Sequence record: PQ384582.1
Reading direction: 5' to 3' (one strand)
Source of the DNA: Escherichia phage EcoPhCCP1
Length of the DNA stretch: 44,482 nucleotides
The notes beneath the pieces were generated by a model. The model searched no databases and was not told where the DNA came from. It worked only from the letters and a program-made list of their open reading frames with translations. How positions within the stretch are numbered: the stretch's first letter is position 1; each line of letters begins with the position of its first letter. The translations under genes and the position numbers were made by a program. Positions 4,354 through 43,219 of the stretch are shown in pieces.

Positions 4354-4572
4354 TTATTTCTCCTGCTTAGCTAATCGTTTCGTTGAACATGTTGCGCGCA
4401 CCTCGGTATCAATTGGCTTATCCTGAAACAGGAAGTGCGTATTCTCTGCGTTGCGTGCCGCAGCCTGGCACGCCTCCATCGAATAAAACGTTTCGGATGC
4501 CGCCAGTTGCATCTGGCCTGCGGTCAACACCCAGATAAATAAGATGCTGGTCATTCGGTTATCCATCCACAT
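4354..4572 (-). CDS. small protein with N-terminal signal/TM segment
   Basis: MTSILFIWVLTAGQ...ACQAAA resembles MTWILFIIVASYQ...ACETAA of 1958..2137; start ambiguous. Confidence 0.45.
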   Translation of the reverse strand: MWMDNRMTSILFIWVLTAGQMQLAASETFYSMEACQAAARNAENTHFLFQDKPIDTEVRATCSTKRLAKQEK

Positions 4573-5024
4573 TTAATACAATGACGGTGTGCCCCGCTTT
4601 CAGGGTATATGTATTCAAAGTCGTGGCAGCACTCCTGCACATCTTCCTTACGGCAACCAGATTGCTCAGTGTTGGCTTCGCTTTTCCCAAGCGCGGCTAA
4701 CATCGAGTCATAAAACGCAACCTTAAGGATATTAAATTGCGCACCGTTAATAGGGCCTTTAGCCACTAAAGCATCATGTAATTTCCACGCGGCAGAGTTA
4801 ACGCTAGGACTCGCCTTAGATGGAATAGAAACACCTTTCTGCAACTCCTTAATCTGCGCCGAAGCATCACGTAACTGATTCTTGAGTGACAACACCTCGT
4901 GCGCCAGGTCTTCGCACTGTTGCTTGTATGGGTTGTTAGTTAACTGCTGCCGTAGTTGGTTAAGCAGGAACTCGATTACTTCGTTTTTGTTACTCATATT
5001 ATGTACTCCACCTTTTCTCCGCAT
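4551..5024 (-). CDS. coiled-coil protein with C-terminal zinc-ribbon-like tail
   Basis: C-terminus CHDFEYIYPESGAHRHCIKCG; likely start at internal MSNKNEV. Confidence 0.45.
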   Translation of the reverse strand: MRRKGGVHNMSNKNEVIEFLLNQLRQQLTNNPYKQQCEDLAHEVLSLKNQLRDASAQIKELQKGVSIPSKASPSVNSAAWKLHDALVAKGPINGAQFNILKVAFYDSMLAALGKSEANTEQSGCRKEDVQECCHDFEYIYPESGAHRHCIKCGWITE

Positions 5025-5453: not shown

Positions 5454-5482
5454 ATAGTAGCCTATTCTATCTTAGTGTGCAA
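5454..5482 (-). promoter_or_regulatory. phage promoter family member TTGCAC-N17-TACTAT (minus strand)
   Basis: Same architecture as 6830-6858, 29301-29329 and 39188-39216. Confidence 0.5.
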
Positions 5483-6829: not shown

Positions 6830-6858
6830 ATAGTATCCTATTATGTTGGGGTGTGCAA
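6830..6858 (-). promoter_or_regulatory. phage promoter family member TTGCAC-N17-TACTAT (minus strand)
   Basis: Reverse complement of 6826-6858 matches the 32-bp promoter at 29301 and 39188 with 2 mismatches. Confidence 0.55.
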
Positions 6859-6940: not shown

Positions 6941-7010
6941 AAGAGTGAGTGAGTGAGCTTGCGGTTCTGACCTACGGCAAATCAGTAACTTATATACTTA
7001 GGCGGGAATT

Positions 7011-7156
7011 ACAATAGACTATGGCCCTTCCGAATGCGCCAGCGAGACTCACTCCACACGTCGAGACGTGCTCGTTTCGCCTGCCGCGCACCGCGGTCGC
7101 TTGTTCATACTTCACAAGCTCAGGTCGAGCTTAGCATATTTCTTAGTAAAAGTCAA
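7011..7156. repeat. non-coding repeat element, copy 1 (paralog of 38980-39121)
   Basis: Direct alignment: about 80% identity overall with a 45-bp near-identical core (CGCGGTCGCTTGTTCATACTTCACAAGCTCAGGT.GAGCTTAGCA). Confidence 0.85.
7128..7156 (-). promoter_or_regulatory. promoter-like module in repeat copy 1: TTGACT-N17(TGn)-TAAGCT (minus strand)
   Basis: -35 TTGACT (7156-7151), 17-nt spacer, extended -10 TGcTAAGCT (to 7128); conserved in copy 2. Confidence 0.4.
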
Positions 7157-7261: not shown

Positions 7262-7432
7262 ATGACTATCAATGAAGTAGCTGAACGTATTGGGGTGACG
7301 CGCCAGACAATTAATAACTGGATTAAGAGTGGAAAGTTTCCTGATTGCAGCGTTAAAGTAATGGGTCGCCGGATGCCGGGGACATTTGACCGTAATAAAG
7401 TTGAAGCGTGGATTAAGGAGAACGTGAAATGA
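7262..7432 (+). CDS. HTH DNA-binding protein (AlpA/Xis/MerR-like)
   Basis: Internal ATG 7262 with GGAG SD; MTINEVAERIGVTRQTINNWIKSGKFP is a typical HTH. Confidence 0.6.
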   Translation: MTINEVAERIGVTRQTINNWIKSGKFPDCSVKVMGRRMPGTFDRNKVEAWIKENVK

Positions 7433-10096: not shown

Positions 10097-10121
10097 GTAA
10101 AAAGAAAGGGGCGTTAAGCCC
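10097..10121 (-). terminator. rho-independent terminator (minus strand) at the end of the XRE gene
   Basis: GGGGC-GTTAA-GCCCC hairpin (10107-10121) followed on minus strand by TTTCTTTTTT. Confidence 0.5.
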
Positions 10122-10329
10122 CTTCACCGAACGCCAGCCACTTGGCGTCTACTTCCAGCACTTCTGCCAGTTTAAACAGCGTCGCCGGGCGGACATCCTG
10201 AGTTACACCGAGTGCCAGTTGGTTAATCGCGCCCTGGGAAACCCCAGCCAGAACAGCCAGACGGCGCTGGGAGATGCCGAGTTCTTTACGGCGTTGTTCT
10301 ACACGGATGCCTAGTTCAGATGGTTGCAT
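10114..10329 (-). CDS. XRE-family HTH transcriptional regulator (Cro/CI-like)
   Basis: LGISQRRLAVLAGVSQGAINQL is a classic XRE HTH; gene is antiparallel to the flanking replication genes. Confidence 0.75.
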   Translation of the reverse strand: MQPSELGIRVEQRRKELGISQRRLAVLAGVSQGAINQLALGVTQDVRPATLFKLAEVLEVDAKWLAFGEGA

Positions 10330-10393
10330 GTCAATTACTCCTTAGTCAGTTGATATGTGAATAGTACCATATTAATTATTTTAGGAAAGCCCA

Positions 10394-10455: not shown

Positions 10456-10632
10456 ATGGCTAAACGTAAAGATTATGATGCTAACTGGAAAGTGTGGTTT
10501 CCCAACGTCATCCTAGAAGGACGTGGGGATGTTGAAGGTATGATTACTCAGGCATTCCGTTTCTTACCCGAAAACATGCAGAAAGACATTCTTAAAGAAC
10601 TTAACAATATCGCCGAACAGGAGAACAAATAA
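10456..10632 (+). CDS. hypothetical protein (58 aa, below cutoff)
   Basis: Translated by hand: MAKRKDYDANWKVWFPNVILEGRGDVEGM...; GAGAGGAGAG SD; TAATG junction with next gene. Confidence 0.45.
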   Translation: MAKRKDYDANWKVWFPNVILEGRGDVEGMITQAFRFLPENMQKDILKELNNIAEQENK

Positions 10633-11159
10633 TGTTAGAGAAATTCTTAGTATTACTGGAACGTTTCGTAGTTGCGCATGAACTGATTGCTGCGAACAGT
10701 GTGAAACAACCGACTAATAAATCTGTAGGTGAATTGACCGTTGACGTCGCGGTAACGGGGGTAGAGACAGTTAAAAAAGAACTGGCTAAAGCACTTGAAG
10801 AAGTCGAGAAGGCGAAAGAAATCCCGGTTGAAGGTGAAGACGTCGTTGACACTAAACCGGCAGAAGATGAGAAGCCGAAACGCAAGCCTGGCAAATCAAA
10901 ACCAGCCCCTAAACCTGTAGAGGAACCAACACCGGAGCCGGAAGAAGAAGTCGATTACCAGTCTCTGCGTGACCAGATTCAGGCTATCGACGATGCGATT
11001 AACGAAGGTCCGAGCGATGCCGCGTGCGACGATTCCGATGAACTACTGGAAGAGTTCACCGGTAAGAAAATGAAGATTGCCGCGATTAAAGACGAAGACC
11101 TGGTTGAATATCTGGAACTCCTCACGGCAATCAAGAACAAGTATTTCGAAGAAGAATAA
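10632..11159 (+). CDS. acidic Pro/Glu/Lys-rich protein (hypothetical)
   Basis: ORF track; strongly acidic low-complexity central region (KPAPKPVEEPTPEPEEE). Confidence 0.5.
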   Translation: MLEKFLVLLERFVVAHELIAANSVKQPTNKSVGELTVDVAVTGVETVKKELAKALEEVEKAKEIPVEGEDVVDTKPAEDEKPKRKPGKSKPAPKPVEEPTPEPEEEVDYQSLRDQIQAIDDAINEGPSDAACDDSDELLEEFTGKKMKIAAIKDEDLVEYLELLTAIKNKYFEEE

Positions 11160-20136: not shown

Positions 20137-20140
20137 AGAA

Positions 20141-20167
20141 AAGGCCCCAAACGGGGCCTTAGTTTTA
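20141..20167. terminator. bidirectional rho-independent terminator between the replication and tail operons
   Basis: AAAAGGCCCC-AAAC-GGGGCCTT with T-runs on both strands. Confidence 0.75.
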
Positions 20168-29193: not shown

Positions 29194-29300
29194 TCTTTAA
29201 TCCTTTGGTTAAGAGGTTACTGGTTAAAGGAAATGCGCCAGACGGGAACCACCCGCTTTTCGTGTGCGACACTAGGCGCAAAATTATTCTAACACACTAC

Positions 29301-29329
29301 TTGCACACCCCAATATAATAGGGTACTAT
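29301..29329 (+). promoter_or_regulatory. phage promoter family member TTGCAC-N17-TACTAT (plus strand) driving the moron island
   Basis: 32 bp (29301-29332) identical to 39188-39219. Confidence 0.6.
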
Positions 29330-31946: not shown

Positions 31947-31976
31947 AAAAAGGCCCCGAAAGGGGCCTTAGTTTTA
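31947..31976. terminator. bidirectional rho-independent terminator
   Basis: AAAAAGGCCCC-GAAA-GGGGCCTT flanked by A-run and T-run. Confidence 0.75.
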
Positions 31977-36478: not shown

Positions 36479-36537
36479 AAATTACCTCTTAGTAAATGAA
36501 AAGAGGGACCGAAGTCCCTCTCGATTATATATTAACC

Positions 36538-37587: not shown

Positions 37588-38345
37588 TATTTTTTCCTCA
37601 GGGCTTTAAGTTGCCGTTCAAATTCGGCAGGGTTCGATTCGTACAGAGCGATACGCTCCGCTTCACTCATGTCTTTAAACGCTGGTGCGGCCCCGCCGCC
37701 TTTGCCACCGGAAGCCCCGCCGCCGGAAGCTGCATTTGCTTTAATCAAATGCGAAAACGCTTTGTGTTCACGCAGATATTTGCGGAACTGTTCCGGGTCA
37801 GTCGTGATTACGTTGCCGTCTGCACCAACAAACTTAGTAACCACATCATCGCCTTCGAACTCAGTCTTAACGAACGGTGCAAGAATGTCCACTGCTTCAG
37901 GGGTGATGAAGTCACCTGCGAAAGAGCCTAACACCGCTTTACGTTCGCTGCCGAGGATGCGCTCTGCCATTCTGGAGATGCAACCATCTTTCTCGGCCAG
38001 CACCGGGTCATACTGGCTACGAATCGTTTTTTCGAACTCGTCCATCTTACCGGCGGCTTTTAGTGCCTCCTGGTGCGCGCGCTGCCGTTCTTCTTCGGCC
38101 TCTTTTGCTTTACGAGCGGCTTCTTTCTTCTCCGCCAGCAATGCTTCCTGATTAGCCTTAAGACCGGCGACTTCTTTCTCAATCAGCGCCTGAACTTCTT
38201 CGGCTGTGAACATTTTTGGCGCGTCACCGCCACCAGCTTTATCTTCTGCCCCAGCTTCTTCCTGGAACGGATAACGTAAAAAACGATTCATAGTCAGTAT
38301 GTCCCCTGGACGTTGGAACCCGGGCCACCCGGATTTACATGTCAA
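37587..38345 (-). CDS. capsid scaffolding protein
   Basis: Helical, charged, Ala/Glu/Lys-rich; immediately upstream of the capsid gene; true start probably an internal Met. Confidence 0.6.
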   Translation of the reverse strand: MTCKSGWPGFQRPGDILTMNRFLRYPFQEEAGAEDKAGGGDAPKMFTAEEVQALIEKEVAGLKANQEALLAEKKEAARKAKEAEEERQRAHQEALKAAGKMDEFEKTIRSQYDPVLAEKDGCISRMAERILGSERKAVLGSFAGDFITPEAVDILAPFVKTEFEGDDVVTKFVGADGNVITTDPEQFRKYLREHKAFSHLIKANAASGGGASGGKGGGAAPAFKDMSEAERIALYESNPAEFERQLKALRKK

Positions 38346-38373
38346 GAATAAATTATTCCAACATGCAAGGCAA

Positions 38374-38637
38374 CTATTCCAGAATATTCCTCACGTAATC
38401 CTGCAACATGAACACTTTCAGCCTCAGCTGCCGTACGCATTCGGCGTTCTGGACGTCGATAGCTAAATCCTCGTCAGCGTCGCTACTTGGCGGCGCCAGT
38501 TTGCACGGAGGCTGCATCATTGTCGTATCCGGGGATGGAATTGGCGTTTGCGACGGCGCGGGACTTGAGCAGGACGCGAGCATCGTCGAAAGTGCACACG
38601 CTGCGGCCAGGCGTTTTAATGTACTTAACGACTTCAC
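38374..38637 (-). CDS. o-spanin (Rz1-like outer-membrane lipoprotein)
   Basis: Signal peptide with lipobox LASC, Pro-rich mature region; starts inside the i-spanin gene in another frame. Confidence 0.7.
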   Translation of the reverse strand: MKSLSTLKRLAAACALSTMLASCSSPAPSQTPIPSPDTTMMQPPCKLAPPSSDADEDLAIDVQNAECVRQLRLKVFMLQDYVRNILE

Positions 38638-38869
38638 GGGTAATCACCTCTGATTTCGTCTTGCCTTCGTTGTCGGCGGCTGCGGCCTTCGATTCATCTT
38701 GCTGCTGCCGTTGTGTTTTCTTCGCTAACTCAGCCTGTGCTTTCTGCTGTTGCTGCGAAACGAGATTCGCCCGGCCTTCGTTCCAGCCGCTGTGATACTG
38801 GTAGATGCCGTGTGCGTAAGCCAGGATGGTGAAACATGCTCCTGCTACGACAGTTGCTTTAAGATTCAT
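38483..38869 (-). CDS. i-spanin (Rz-like)
   Basis: N-terminal TM segment, Gln/Lys-rich coiled coil; AAGGAG SD; overlapped gene architecture with Rz1. Confidence 0.7.
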   Translation of the reverse strand: MNLKATVVAGACFTILAYAHGIYQYHSGWNEGRANLVSQQQQKAQAELAKKTQRQQQDESKAAAADNEGKTKSEVITREVVKYIKTPGRSVCTFDDARVLLKSRAVANANSIPGYDNDAASVQTGAAK

Positions 38870-38883
38870 GTTTCTCCTTTCTC

Positions 38884-38913
38884 GATAAGTAAAGCCCCGC
38901 CATAAAGCGGGGC
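38884..38913 (-). terminator. terminator/attenuator hairpin (minus strand) just upstream of the spanin RBS
   Basis: GCCCCGC-UUUAUG-GCGGGGC followed by UUUACUUAUC on the minus-strand RNA. Confidence 0.45.
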
Positions 38914-38979
38914 GCTAGTCCTTATCATTTAAACATAGAAACGGCGTAATCTCAGTAAACCAGTTACTTTTTACACAAG

Positions 38980-39121
38980 CAATAGAGTATGGCCCTTCCG
39001 AACGCGTCAGCGTAACTACACTCGGGACTTACGTCCGGCTCCGTTACCTGCCGCGCCGCGGTCGCTTGTTCATACTTCACAAGCTCAGGTGGAGCTTAGC
39101 ACATTTTCAGTGAAAAGTCAA
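38980..39121. repeat. non-coding repeat element, copy 2 (paralog of 7011-7156)
   Basis: Direct alignment with copy 1; conserved ends and core, variable middle with a 2-nt indel. Confidence 0.85.
39093..39121 (-). promoter_or_regulatory. promoter-like module in repeat copy 2: TTGACT-N17(TGn)-TAAGCT (minus strand)
   Basis: -35 TTGACT (39121-39116), 17-nt spacer, TGcTAAGCT; same architecture as 7128-7156. Confidence 0.4.
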
Positions 39122-39134
39122 CTATTCGAATAGT
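39121..39134. promoter_or_regulatory. perfect 14-bp palindrome ACTATTCGAATAGT abutting the -35 of the repeat-copy-2 promoter
   Basis: Read directly; half-sites related to the AATAG/CTATT dyad found in other promoters. Confidence 0.6.
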
Positions 39135-39187
39135 TTATTCCAACATTTACAATTCGGCGGAATACCTGGAATAGGTAAATAAATTGT

Positions 39188-39216
39188 TTGCACACCCCAA
39201 TATAATAGGGTACTAT
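39188..39216 (+). promoter_or_regulatory. phage promoter family member TTGCAC-N17-TACTAT (plus strand)
   Basis: 32 bp identical to 29301-29332. Confidence 0.6.
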
Positions 39217-39265
39217 TCATCTCAGCATACAACATGTTTAACCCATTAAATCGGGAGTATCTAAA

Positions 39266-39391
39266 ATGAACTACGCACCTCTTAAAAATAAATGTCGAGC
39301 TGCGGTTATCCGTAAAGCGTGGAGAGACGCTCCTGACTCACGTATTAAAAAGGTGATGCTTGAGTGGGCCGAAAGACTCAGCTTAACATAA
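39266..39391 (+). CDS. small basic protein (41 aa, below cutoff), moron
   Basis: Translated by hand: MNYAPLKNKCRAAVIRKAWRDAPDSRIKKVMLEWAERLSLT; GGGAG SD; own promoter and terminator. Confidence 0.4.
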   Translation: MNYAPLKNKCRAAVIRKAWRDAPDSRIKKVMLEWAERLSLT

Positions 39392-39395
39392 AACT

Positions 39396-39420
39396 AAGGC
39401 CCCGTTACGGGGCCTTTTAT
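39396..39420. terminator. bidirectional rho-independent terminator
   Basis: AGGCCCC-GTTAC-GGGGCCT followed by TTTT. Confidence 0.7.
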
Positions 39421-41066: not shown

Positions 41067-41720
41067 ATGAAACTGCAAACATTAGAGTTCCCTTATGGAG
41101 AAATCACTTTTGACCGTGAAAACTTTATTAACGTAAACGAGCTGGTTGACCAGATGAACCGTTGGCGTTTAGACAACGGCATGGGGACAAGAGAGCTTCG
41201 CCAGGTCATGGCAACGGATGGCTTCAAGATTTTCAAGGAGGAATGCGAAAAACAACTCGGAATCGAGAATGCCATAAGGGCGACGAAAGGCCGAAACGGT
41301 CGCACCTTTGCATGTCTCCATCTGGCAGTATATATTGCTGAGCAATACAGCGCCTATTTCCATTTCCTCGTTATCGACCGCTTTATCACACAACGGCAGG
41401 TAGAACTACGAAACATTGGCGCGGTGAGCTTTGTCGAGCTTAACGCTGCCGTTAGTCGAATGATTGAGCGCACGGAGGGAAGAATTGGCCACAGTGGACA
41501 CTTCATACAGGTGGCTAAAGCGGTAAAGGAATCCGTAGATATCCGCGACGTAACGGGTTTCGATACATGGGACTCTCAGGATGCGAAGACCAATCAGTTG
41601 CGAAGTGACATCCAGAAAGCTCTGGTGACACTTCTTGACATGGAGGCCGTTAATACATGGGGTGAACTGAAAGAGGCGATACCTCGGGTTGTGCGTAAAT
41701 GTGCGGCTAATATACGTTAA
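41067..41720 (+). CDS. KilA-N domain protein (moron)
   Basis: GRNGRTFACLHLAVYIAEQYSAYFHFLVIDRF resembles the KilA-N/APSES core; opposite strand to the flanking structural genes. Confidence 0.55.
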   Translation: MKLQTLEFPYGEITFDRENFINVNELVDQMNRWRLDNGMGTRELRQVMATDGFKIFKEECEKQLGIENAIRATKGRNGRTFACLHLAVYIAEQYSAYFHFLVIDRFITQRQVELRNIGAVSFVELNAAVSRMIERTEGRIGHSGHFIQVAKAVKESVDIRDVTGFDTWDSQDAKTNQLRSDIQKALVTLLDMEAVNTWGELKEAIPRVVRKCAANIR

Positions 41721-41724
41721 AGCT

Positions 41725-41750
41725 AAGGCCCCTAGCGGGGCCTTTCTATT
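41725..41750. terminator. rho-independent terminator after the KilA-N gene
   Basis: AGGCCCC-TAGC-GGGGCCT followed by TTCTATTT. Confidence 0.65.
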
Positions 41751-43219
41751 TACTCCTGTTGTTGCGCCGACTGCGGAATATCCCCCGCTACCTGAGTATT
41801 TACACCCAACGGCAGCGGTGCGTCCTCAATAGCGTTCTGAATGTCCTCATCGGTCCAGTCGGTTACGCCAGCCTTACGCAGAGCGGCGTAGTAAGCAGTA
41901 GCTGGTAACAAGCCAGCGTTAATATCCGCCATCCACTGAGAACGGTCCTGAGCTGTCATCGGTTGCAGGAAGAACTCCATATTCAGCTTGAACTCAATCT
42001 CTGTGCCTTCACGCAGCCCTAGCATCGCAGCCACCCAGCGCAATGCATCGGTGTACGCCATGCTTACGTTACGTGCGATTGTCGCCATAACAGACGTATC
42101 CGCTCCGCGTTGCAGGCGGGCCGATTCCGCGGTGATTTGCTGCGTCGGGGTGATAAGCTGCGCCCCAATCTGGATGGCCTGATTCTCTTTATCGAGCATG
42201 TTCTGTTTGGCAAGGTTGTTCTCCCCAGCCTGGACCAGAAACGCATTGCCGCCGTAACCGATGTTATGGCCCGAACGCGACCCCATGCGCACGCCGTGTG
42301 GGTTAGCCTCTTTCCACTGTTCCATGCTCATGTTCTCGCCGGGGGCGATAAACAGCGTGGGCTGGCCTACAACGAAGCTCGACTCCTCATTGTCCGCGCT
42401 GTTACGGAAATGCCCGATATTGAGCTCAGCCAACGGCAGCAAAGGGGCATCGTCGATGGTCGCATCGTTGTTGCTCGCCCCGATGAACGTGAACGGGATT
42501 TTACCGCGCAACTGTTCGCCGAGTTCCGGGTATATTTCGATTACTTCATCCTGTTCGCCACCTTCGGCATCGAAGCGATAAATGCGCTGGCGATAACGAC
42601 CGTCAATCAGGTCAAGGACACGGTATTGCTCACCAAACTTGGTTTCGAACTCTGCGCCAGGTTCCGAGTATTCCCATACTTCGCGCAGCACGACCATTGT
42701 CACACGGTTAACCGAACCGATGCGGGTCAGTCGCCAGTTGATAATGTTCTCCGCGGTGTAGAATGCGATGACTGGGTTTAACAACCCCGCGTTCTGTTCT
42801 GCCGCTGTTGCCGCGGCTGTCTCCGGGGCGTCCACCAGCAACCCGCCACGGCCTACCGAGTCAATCTCCATCAAAGTGTCCTGCGCGTGCTGCCACAGCC
42901 CGACACCGGAGCCATCCGCATTGCGTAACAGGTACTCCATTTCAGGCGGGATAATCTGCTCTGGGTCTTTGCGCATCACCGACCCCACCATCCCGGCCAG
43001 GGTACGTTTAGTGAAGTTGTAGCAAATAGCGCCGTTCTCGTATTCTTCCTGACGCTGGGCTGCGTAGACCGGGTCAGGTTCGTTCTTACCGACGTTGCGA
43101 AGATAGCGGATAAGGTCGCCCTCCAGCGCGTGGCGTACCTTCTGCCATTTATCGAAGTGATGCAGCCATTCCCGGTGTTTTGTCTTAACACCCTGATTCT
43201 GACCGTTCATAGTTAGCAT
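41750..43219 (-). CDS. portal protein
   Basis: 489-aa ORF immediately downstream of terL; no motif recognised. Confidence 0.65.
   Translation of the reverse strand: MLTMNGQNQGVKTKHREWLHHFDKWQKVRHALEGDLIRYLRNVGKNEPDPVYAAQRQEEYENGAICYNFTKRTLAGMVGSVMRKDPEQIIPPEMEYLLRNADGSGVGLWQHAQDTLMEIDSVGRGGLLVDAPETAAATAAEQNAGLLNPVIAFYTAENIINWRLTRIGSVNRVTMVVLREVWEYSEPGAEFETKFGEQYRVLDLIDGRYRQRIYRFDAEGGEQDEVIEIYPELGEQLRGKIPFTFIGASNNDATIDDAPLLPLAELNIGHFRNSADNEESSFVVGQPTLFIAPGENMSMEQWKEANPHGVRMGSRSGHNIGYGGNAFLVQAGENNLAKQNMLDKENQAIQIGAQLITPTQQITAESARLQRGADTSVMATIARNVSMAYTDALRWVAAMLGLREGTEIEFKLNMEFFLQPMTAQDRSQWMADINAGLLPATAYYAALRKAGVTDWTDEDIQNAIEDAPLPLGVNTQVAGDIPQSAQQQE

Follow-up and report, generated by a model that had tools for sequence, protein, structure and literature searches.

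The 44,482-nucleotide stretch of sequence record PQ384582.1 that was analyzed here (the window) is a complete, circularly permuted genome of a Kagunavirus (subfamily Guernseyvirinae), and it is reversed relative to that of phage Bas70. On its minus strand the genes for terminase, portal, a head-morphogenesis protein and a Hoc-like protein (39881-39420) run up to a terminator at 39416-39396, and beyond a small ORF on the plus strand lie the leader element that is our subject and then Rz/Rz1, the scaffold and the major capsid protein, followed by the other head and tail genes. Two terminators are located further into or at the end of the Rz operon (36522-36501 and 31976-31949). The element occurs twice in the window, and we refer to the version upstream of Rz as copy 2 and to the other, near position 7,000, as copy 1. 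The features are as follows.

39416-39396, minus strand: strong terminator that closes the preceding operon
39173-39159, minus strand: direct repeats TATTCCAGGTATTCC upstream of the promoter, candidate regulator binding sites
39141-39128, minus strand: palindrome GGAATA-AAC-TATTC, which ends 6 nt upstream of the -35
39121-39093, minus strand: promoter P_el2, with -35 TTGACT (39121-39116), a 17-nt spacer with TGc (39101-39099) and -10 TAAGCT (39098-39093)
39086-39085, minus strand: predicted transcription start G39086, 6 nt past the -10 in an invariant CTGA context, placed by promoter geometry and the invariant columns C5-A8 of alignment A1
39084-39064, minus strand: H1, 5'-terminal hairpin GCUUGU(G)-loop-(A)ACAAGC, 1-2 nt from the predicted 5' end
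39061-38998, minus strand: H2, long irregular hairpin with a basal stem, a middle stem, an asymmetric internal loop and an apical stem
38997-38980, minus strand: conserved single-stranded tail AAGGGCC-AUACUC-UAUUG, the end of the module common to both copies
38979-38928, minus strand: linker with the Jersey-shared blocks AAGAUU(A)CGCCGU and AUGUUUA
38927-38883, minus strand: 3' domain, an extended hairpin with lower stem UGAUAAG/CUUAUCG and a 3-nt bulge
38913-38894, minus strand: GC apex, which with the tail UUUACUUAUC makes up the terminator-like part of the 3' domain
38879-38867, minus strand: Rz Shine-Dalgarno AAGGAG (38879-38874) and Rz start codon ATG (38869-38867)
7156-7012, minus strand: copy 1, consisting of P_el1 (7156-7128) and H1, H2 and tail (7127-7012); 107 bits
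6941-6925, minus strand: hairpin downstream of copy 1, UGGUGCC-UUC-GGCACCA, without an adjacent U run; terminator score -40

Some other observations concern the late region as a whole. The hairpin at 36501-36522 (minus strand) is terminator-like and lies directly 3' of the major capsid gene, within the operon that the element heads. Near-identical bidirectional terminators of the form AAGGCCCC-N3/4-GGGGCCTT are located at 20139-20167, 31948-31976, 39392-39419 and 41721-41751 and border reverse-strand insertions that break the late gene array, among them a KilA-N-like gene (41067-41720) that separates the portal gene from the one for head morphogenesis. The small-terminase ORF contains a perfect 77-bp tandem duplication (111-187, 188-264) that adjoins the point where the large-terminase ORF begins at the opposite end of the window, and this duplication (111-264) looks like an artefact of assembly or circularization. 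A replication origin at the element was considered and rejected, as GC skew turns at ~7 kb and ~20 kb together with the direction of transcription and shows nothing at 39 kb.

The promoter and its upstream sites

A promoter-like TTGACT-N17-TAAGCT had been proposed at 39121-39093 on the minus strand in an earlier note on this DNA, and the sequence does contain it, in the form of a sigma-70 promoter of the extended -10 type (TTGACT-N14-TGc-TAAGCT). The pattern TTGACT-N14-TGN-TAAGCT has exactly two sites in the window (39121 and 7156), against zero expected from 100 shuffles. Comparison of 74 distinct instances in related phages shows conservation of both hexamers and the TG, with a spacer that is free in sequence and constant in length, and the homology of copies 1 and 2 starts precisely at the -35. 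These three lines of sequence comparison lead us to conclude that TTGACT-N14-TGc-TAAGCT is a genuine extended -10 promoter, with a predicted transcription start near 39086. A generic promoter scanner missed P_el2 because TAAGCT agrees with TATAAT at only three of the six positions.

The sites that lie upstream of the promoter are also conserved. The repeat array ATTCCAGTTATTCC is kept upstream of the copy-2 promoters in the Kagunavirus and Jersey lineages and is absent from copy 1. A search of the window for the GGAATA-N3-TATTC palindrome with at most one mismatch gave seven matches (0.58 expected), made up of the late-region palindromic sites at 39128-39141 and 38346-38359, a match at a ribosome binding site and start codon (35528) and a stray match (12077). 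Phage Jersey has GGAATA-CTT-TATTC at the identical distance of 6 nt from its -35, and the TATTCC repeats and the palindrome are both conserved in position in the two lineages and missing at copy 1. Most promoters of the Jersey type have a degraded -35 (TAGACT or TAGATT), which would fit dependence on a bound activator. The conserved upstream repeats, taken together with the degraded Jersey -35, suggest that late timing could be set at initiation, and control through the TATTCC/GGAATA repeats could thus be an alternative route to it.

Related sites are found elsewhere in the window. The second GGAATA-N3-TATTC palindrome (38346-38359, minus strand) adjoins a TTGACA hexamer between Rz1 and the scaffold gene, and the region around it (38330-38380, minus strand) contains more GGAATA repeats and a TGTAAAT, resembling the array upstream of the element promoter. 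No convincing -10 follows the TTGACA at 38346-38359, and the region may serve either as a binding site for a regulator or as a promoter within the operon that depends on an activator. A 32-nt repeat at 39188-39219 was considered as a minus-strand promoter feeding the element and was rejected, as the hexamers and the downstream genes at all four copies show the opposite strand. It is a plus-strand promoter, TTGCAC-17-TACTAT, with an AATAG-N4-CTATT operator, and it serves the small divergent plus-strand ORF and not the leader. The ORF itself (39266-39391, plus strand) encodes a basic product of 41 aa, MNYAPLKNKCRAAVIRKAWRDAPDSRIKKVMLEWAERLSLT, with no Pfam or PHROG match, and its slot is occupied in other members by different insertions (sliding clamp, methylase, RusA). 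Two promoter families have the AATAG-N4-CTATT palindrome in common, namely TTGCAC-17-TACTAT, present four times with the palindrome over the -10, at 5454-5482, 6830-6858 (minus), 29301-29329 and 39188-39216 (plus), and TTGACA-17-TATAGT, present three times with the palindrome in the spacer, at 10393, 13456 and 17228 (plus). Both families are probably under one common repressor or regulator, for which the divergently transcribed 71-aa HTH_3 protein (10114-10329) is a candidate.

The folded leader RNA

The leader is a folded, untranslated RNA of ~215 bases, the first ~105 nt of which form the H1 and H2 domain. Separate MFE folds of 11 sequence types have the same H1/H2 architecture. In alignment A2, which holds 43 distinct sequences, 93% of the cells are paired compared with 29-42% for slid partners, 15 of the 30 pairs are changed on both sides, which was reached by none of 500 shuffles, and the covariation score is 0.256 versus 0.095 in shuffles; A2 was fitted to the covariance model, which biases the pair counts upward, and its variation comes mostly from a few lineages, so that there are fewer independent events than the cell counts suggest. 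In H1 (helix 1) the variants replace U-A with U-G and G.A with G-C. Helices 2 and 3, both in H2, are 96% and 90% paired, with 12 of their 23 pairs altered on both sides, and the internal loop of H2 (GGAG / AGUGUA) is conserved while its 6-bp apical stem with tetraloop is variable. A covariance model built from Kagunaviruses only recovers the Jersey type, in which the middle stem is rebuilt, at E about 1e-9, and the AAGGGYC and UAUUGCUU of the tail are common to the two lineages. The frequent G-U pairs identify the minus as the functional strand, the sense of the late genes. Folding of the H1-H2 domain as RNA is, by these comparisons, supported by covariation, and the conserved hairpin that the earlier note had recognized after the promoter, GCUUGU...ACAAGC, is present.

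Two further elements of that description fared less well. A uORF (MNKRPRRGR*), which has its AUG within the H1 loop, had been listed alongside the hairpin. It is not conserved, as its length differs in copy 1 and there is no AUG in other variants or in the Jersey lineage. What had been called a variable region does differ between copies 1 and 2, but among copy-2 leaders it is nearly invariant and has blocks in common with Jersey. We also note that the 5' arm of H1 is repeated after H2 (38975-38982 versus 39076-39082, minus strand; GCUUGUG in Kagunavirus) and that Jersey has such a repeat in its own sequence, GCUUUCAG (about 7296-7303 versus 7408-7415), the repeat changing along with H1 between lineages. 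This repeat, which is absent from copy 1, may provide an alternative pairing that encloses H2. The element has no match in Rfam at the gathering score, and with E values up to 10 the region 38850-39300 gave only five matches, of 15-16 bits, to unrelated families.

At the 3' end of the leader, the GC hairpin with a U-tract that had been reported at 38913-38884, 14 nt before the Rz Shine-Dalgarno, is present exactly so. Its stem (38913-38894) has eight pairs, seven of which are G-C, with a 4-nt loop and a short U run in a tail, TTTACTTATC, that extends to 38884, and the Rz ATG lies just 25 nt beyond the leader hairpin. On a d'Aubenton-Carafa-type score this hairpin reaches +17 and is the sole positive one among the hairpins of the two copies, compared with -3 for the Jersey hairpin and -32 and -40 for the two kinds of copy-1 hairpin. 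A hairpin that looks like a moderate intrinsic terminator thus lies between the promoter and the genes served in this phage (+17), whereas in the Jersey lineage (-3; 269 records) the GC hairpin is kept by compensatory changes and the U run has decayed to UUAGCGUAU. Since the Jersey hairpin is conserved but has a poor U run, termination cannot be the conserved function of the 3' domain.

In Kagunavirus and Jersey alike, the GC hairpin tops an extended stem made by the U-rich flank and an A-rich strand further upstream, and Jersey has the same architecture, including the 3-nt bulge, in other sequences (UAUACG/CGUAUA; GCCCGGC/GCCGGGC). RNAalifold on a MAFFT alignment of the 3' domain recovers the GC apex only, because the two lineages are out of register, and the lower stem rests on the separate folds. 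The 3' strand of the domain stops about 3 nt before the Rz Shine-Dalgarno, and in the MFE structure GUUUCU is additionally paired to an AGAAAC situated after the Shine-Dalgarno and before the AUG. An extended stem that takes in the U-rich flank would fit a post-transcriptional role at least as well. In four leaders from three lineages the pair probability of the terminator stem is at least 0.98, with no alternative partner above 0.05, and hence there is no sign of a riboswitch-like alternative fold in them.

Distribution and linkage to Rz

A total of 180 phage records contain the copy-2 leader, at 94-99% identity, and the diverged version in phage Jersey, with the same layout in the same place, is found in 269 further records. 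The Kagunavirus and Jersey types therefore lie directly upstream of Rz in 180 + 269 of about 448 Guernseyvirinae records, and the leader module is present in essentially every phage of the subfamily. Among copy-2 leaders there are 47 distinct sequences, every one of which runs directly up to the ribosome binding site of Rz, and their length is fixed in each lineage, with a distance from the -10 to the Rz start of 221-225 nt in Kagunavirus, 212 nt in one variant and 197-198 nt in Jerseyvirus. The proposal that the element is a leader directly upstream of Rz is borne out by this fixed distance, which holds in every instance of the copy-2 type.

Copies 1 and 2 are common only over the 5' 145 nt. 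The hairpin downstream of copy 1 is followed by a TTGCAC-17-TACTAT promoter (6858-6830) and then by the first gene of the leftward operon (ATG 6793). Copy 1 is confined to a subset of Kagunaviruses, where the module heads a second long operon. K1H (1880-2300) is without the copy-1 promoter/H1/H2 core and has instead TTGACA-16-TAAAAT and then a GCCCCGC/GCGGGGC hairpin, and its downstream segment is the one seen in other Kagunaviruses, which indicates modular exchange of promoter-leader cassettes. Replacement of the core in K1H, with retention of what lies downstream, implies that promoter, H1, H2 and tail are inherited together as one unit.

No related sequence was found in 5,426 complete E. 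coli genomes. The only plasmid match in PLSDB, CP088689.1 (44,086 bp), is a record for an E. coli isolate from blood, classed as a "non-mobilizable plasmid", and contains the leader twice at 96.8% identity; it is probably a phage (Kagunavirus) genome, present through carriage or contamination. In metagenomic contigs, the model search left only those of Guernseyvirinae, and a GC-rich pattern scan gave mostly chance matches. A repeat search of the phage genome revealed no inverted repeat, direct repeat or complementary site of the leader besides copy 1. A full-text literature search on Kagunavirus/Jerseyvirinae promoters and terminators and on Guernseyvirinae transcriptomics turned up no description of the leader, and in the one time-course transcriptome (K1B4, PMC12645636) non-coding regions were not resolved. 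The leader is currently unannotated or lies under spurious "hypothetical protein" calls.

Proposed mechanism and its alternatives

No other promoter was found between the terminator at 39416-39396 and Rz. With a strong terminator upstream and no other promoter, Rz transcripts should pass the hairpin at 38913-38894, and the transcripts of the scaffold and capsid genes pass it only if the TTGACA site before scaffold is not an internal promoter. We regard the conserved promoter, the RNA structure, the fixed linkage to Rz and the lack of any other evident Rz promoter as established, and we propose, tentatively and with a confidence that falls somewhat short of even, that the element is a cis-acting leader of the late operon with a leaky terminator and a 5' domain that aids read-through and/or stability. 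Its role is probably to set the amount of transcription, or of stable message, that reaches the late genes. Specifically, host RNA polymerase with sigma-70 would start at ~39086 from the extended -10 promoter, which probably also answers to a DNA-binding protein at the upstream TATTCC/GGAATA repeats. The first ~105 nt of the RNA would fold into H1 and H2, side by side at the 5' terminus, and, ~70 nt further on, the polymerase would meet the GC hairpin and its short U run, acting as a leaky intrinsic terminator. Part of the transcripts would end at this hairpin to give an RNA of ~200 nt and the rest would run into Rz, scaffold and capsid. The 5' domain is proposed to act in cis, by helping the elongation complex past the leader and later terminators in a put-like logic, and/or by shielding the 5' end of the long late mRNA. 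We infer both the partial termination and the effect of the 5' domain on read-through or stability. The earlier note had argued for regulated read-through of the late structural genes, and of this the read-through stands, in that Rz transcripts should pass the hairpin, but its regulation is not supported, as no alternative fold, no antiterminator family recognizable by sequence and no put match was found.

The put RNA of phage HK022, which that note cited as a precedent, is a factor-independent processive antiterminator RNA that acts through the beta' zinc-binding domain, and it is to our knowledge the main characterized phage example of the RNA-only antiterminators. In its predicted fold the element may resemble putL, whose RNA forms a pair of neighboring irregular stem-loops immediately downstream of its promoter, and in both systems two copies head two operons (in some genomes, in the case of the element); the phage studied here has no recognized antiterminator protein. 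However, put has ~70 nt and the element ~105 nt with different proportions (H1 21 nt, H2 64 nt), and put serves the early operons of a temperate phage while the element precedes late structural genes of virulent phages and its effect on polymerase is putative. A covariance model of putL and putR finds its own two members again with 93 and 87 bits, and with filters off it gives the element 7.6 bits (E about 7.6, at 39035-39097), which is the level of noise, so that no match to put in sequence or structure is seen. The location of HK022 putL in this analysis agrees with the residue numbering in PMC9378689. In both lineages the put model also has weak matches (E 0.05-1.3) before the start of the scaffold gene, which were judged to be noise because stem II is mispaired and overlaps the start codon. 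That H1-H2 is an independently evolved factor-independent processive antiterminator RNA, and so a second family after HK022 put, seems to us doubtful.

A purely post-transcriptional leader, in which termination is incidental, is the next most probable reading, although we hold it to be unlikely. H1 would block RppH/RNase E 5'-end-dependent decay, H2 and the 3' domain would be processing sites like those for RNase III in T7, or protective structures, and the 3' domain beside the Shine-Dalgarno would tune Rz translation. This is consistent with the position of H1 1-2 nt from the predicted start and its conserved distance from the promoter, with the retention of the 3' domain as an extended stem in two lineages even without a U run, with the end of its 3' strand about 3 nt before the Shine-Dalgarno and the GUUUCU/AGAAAC pairing, and with the different structured leader, also without a U run, of the tail operon. 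H1, within 1-2 nt of the predicted 5' end, is similar to the stabilizing hairpins of the ompA 5' UTR type, and the long hairpins with asymmetric internal loops between a promoter and highly expressed genes are similar to the RNase III sites of T7. In contrast to both of these, the element has conserved internal-loop sequences, a conserved single-stranded tail and its own promoter within the module, and a simple protective hairpin leaves unexplained the conservation of the H2 internal loop, the invariant AAGGGYC...UAUUG and the copying of promoter, H1 and H2 as a unit.

A free phage small RNA of ~200 nt that acts in trans or sequesters a host protein (for example, through GGA motifs), with its position before Rz a matter of genome economy, is in our view improbable. 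The element in this phage does have its own strong promoter and a terminator that scores, its 3' end would be fully paired by the extended stem, copy 1 lies upstream of another promoter and is not needed there as a leader, and the two copies are common only over the 5' 145 nt. On the other hand, in about 449 genomes the element is never found apart from Rz and its length as a leader is fixed, the Jersey lineage has no credible terminator, and the leader has neither a repeat in the phage genome besides copy 1 nor a relative in the 5,426 complete E. coli genomes. An Hfq-dependent sRNA would typically need a longer U run than the leader has.

Control of the lambda-Q/21Q/AlpA type, in which a protein loads on polymerase paused at a -10-like element and the RNA structure is secondary, appears very unlikely. 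The architecture does match that of lambda pR'-6S RNA-tR', with an unaided sigma-70 promoter, a ~200-nt leader, an intrinsic terminator and lysis and head genes that need read-through. As in the lambda Q, 21Q, 82Q and AlpA systems, there is also a possible -10-like echo near +1, the -10 hexamer recurring 3-5 nt downstream (TAAGCT..TGAGCT; TACGCT..TACGCT in Jersey) and AAGTAT lying at +10 to +15, and palindromes by the -35 are conserved. However, the echoed hexamer has a G at the critical second position in Kagunavirus and an A at position 2 is not conserved, the spacer, in which the lambda and AlpA binding elements lie, is not conserved, and Jersey-type leaders have a weak terminator or none. 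Q systems need no structured leader, whereas the leader here is a structured RNA with strong covariation, which is unexpected for a mechanism at the level of DNA. PHROGs and Pfam scans of 30 phage ORFs, at the sequence level, found no Q-, N- or other antiterminator family, and no RNA polymerase, late sigma factor or antiterminator is recognizable by sequence in these phages. The families that were seen are HTH_17 (56 aa, 7262-7432), HTH_3 (71 aa, 10114-10329), DUF551, KilA-N, HNH and HAD, and the HTH_17 and HTH_3 proteins are the only small regulators conserved with Jersey. Both of them are too small for the nozzle-plus-HTH fold that 21Q and AlpA have; the defining features of the Q family are those given in PMC9371919.

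Three candidates for such a factor were rejected. AlpA-type antitermination was set aside as the Xis/AlpA-like protein of the phage is the 56-aa HTH_17 domain, while AlpA of P. aeruginosa is an eight-helix protein with a 21Q-like fold (PMC9371919), and the link to the int-alpA RNA is a coincidence of names. The other two were candidate Q-like proteins: the 175-aa product of 10632-11159 is acidic and of low complexity, and Jersey has no conserved counterpart of the 157-aa, Cys-rich product of 4551-5024.

The least probable reading, to which we give hardly any weight, is an attenuator, riboswitch-like or protein-titrated, in which a ligand or protein on H2 and the tail picks the terminator or antiterminator fold: conserved internal-loop and junction nucleotides, the 5' UTR location and the downstream terminator suit it, but the terminator stem has no competing partner in the four leaders, ~70 nt lie between the conserved core and the terminator, Rfam gave nothing beyond noise at E up to 10, and the copy-1 and Jersey hairpins are not terminators. 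The probability left over from these readings belongs to something outside them.

The leader is of interest beyond this phage. It lies ahead of the capsid genes in about 450 sequenced Guernseyvirinae and represents an undescribed RNA family that is absent from Rfam, and its carriers include K1-capsule-specific coliphages and the Jersey-like Salmonella phages used in therapy and biocontrol. The promoter-leader-hairpin module, with its upstream regulator sites, is an obvious place to seek the control of late timing. If H1-H2 acts on polymerase, it would broaden the class of RNA-only antiterminators and the virulent Guernseyvirinae would read through the terminators that punctuate their late operons; if it is a stabilizer, it would be a compact and portable 5' UTR part.

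It should be noted that another structured 5' leader of this genome is built on an analogous principle, in that it follows closely on an extended -10 promoter. It resembles the int-alpA RNA (Rfam RF02996), with a sequence and fold other than those of the element, to which it is unrelated. The match (29218-29282, minus strand) is borderline, at 36.6 bits versus a gathering score of 35.8, and lies about 7 nt past TGtTAGAAT. The int-alpA-like leader (29218-29291) is without a U run and precedes the tail-assembly chaperone gene (ATG 29193), so that the tail operon also begins with a promoter-proximal structured leader. The Jersey homologue (about 7000-7050), which scores below the Rfam threshold, has kept both of the inner hairpins by compensatory changes.
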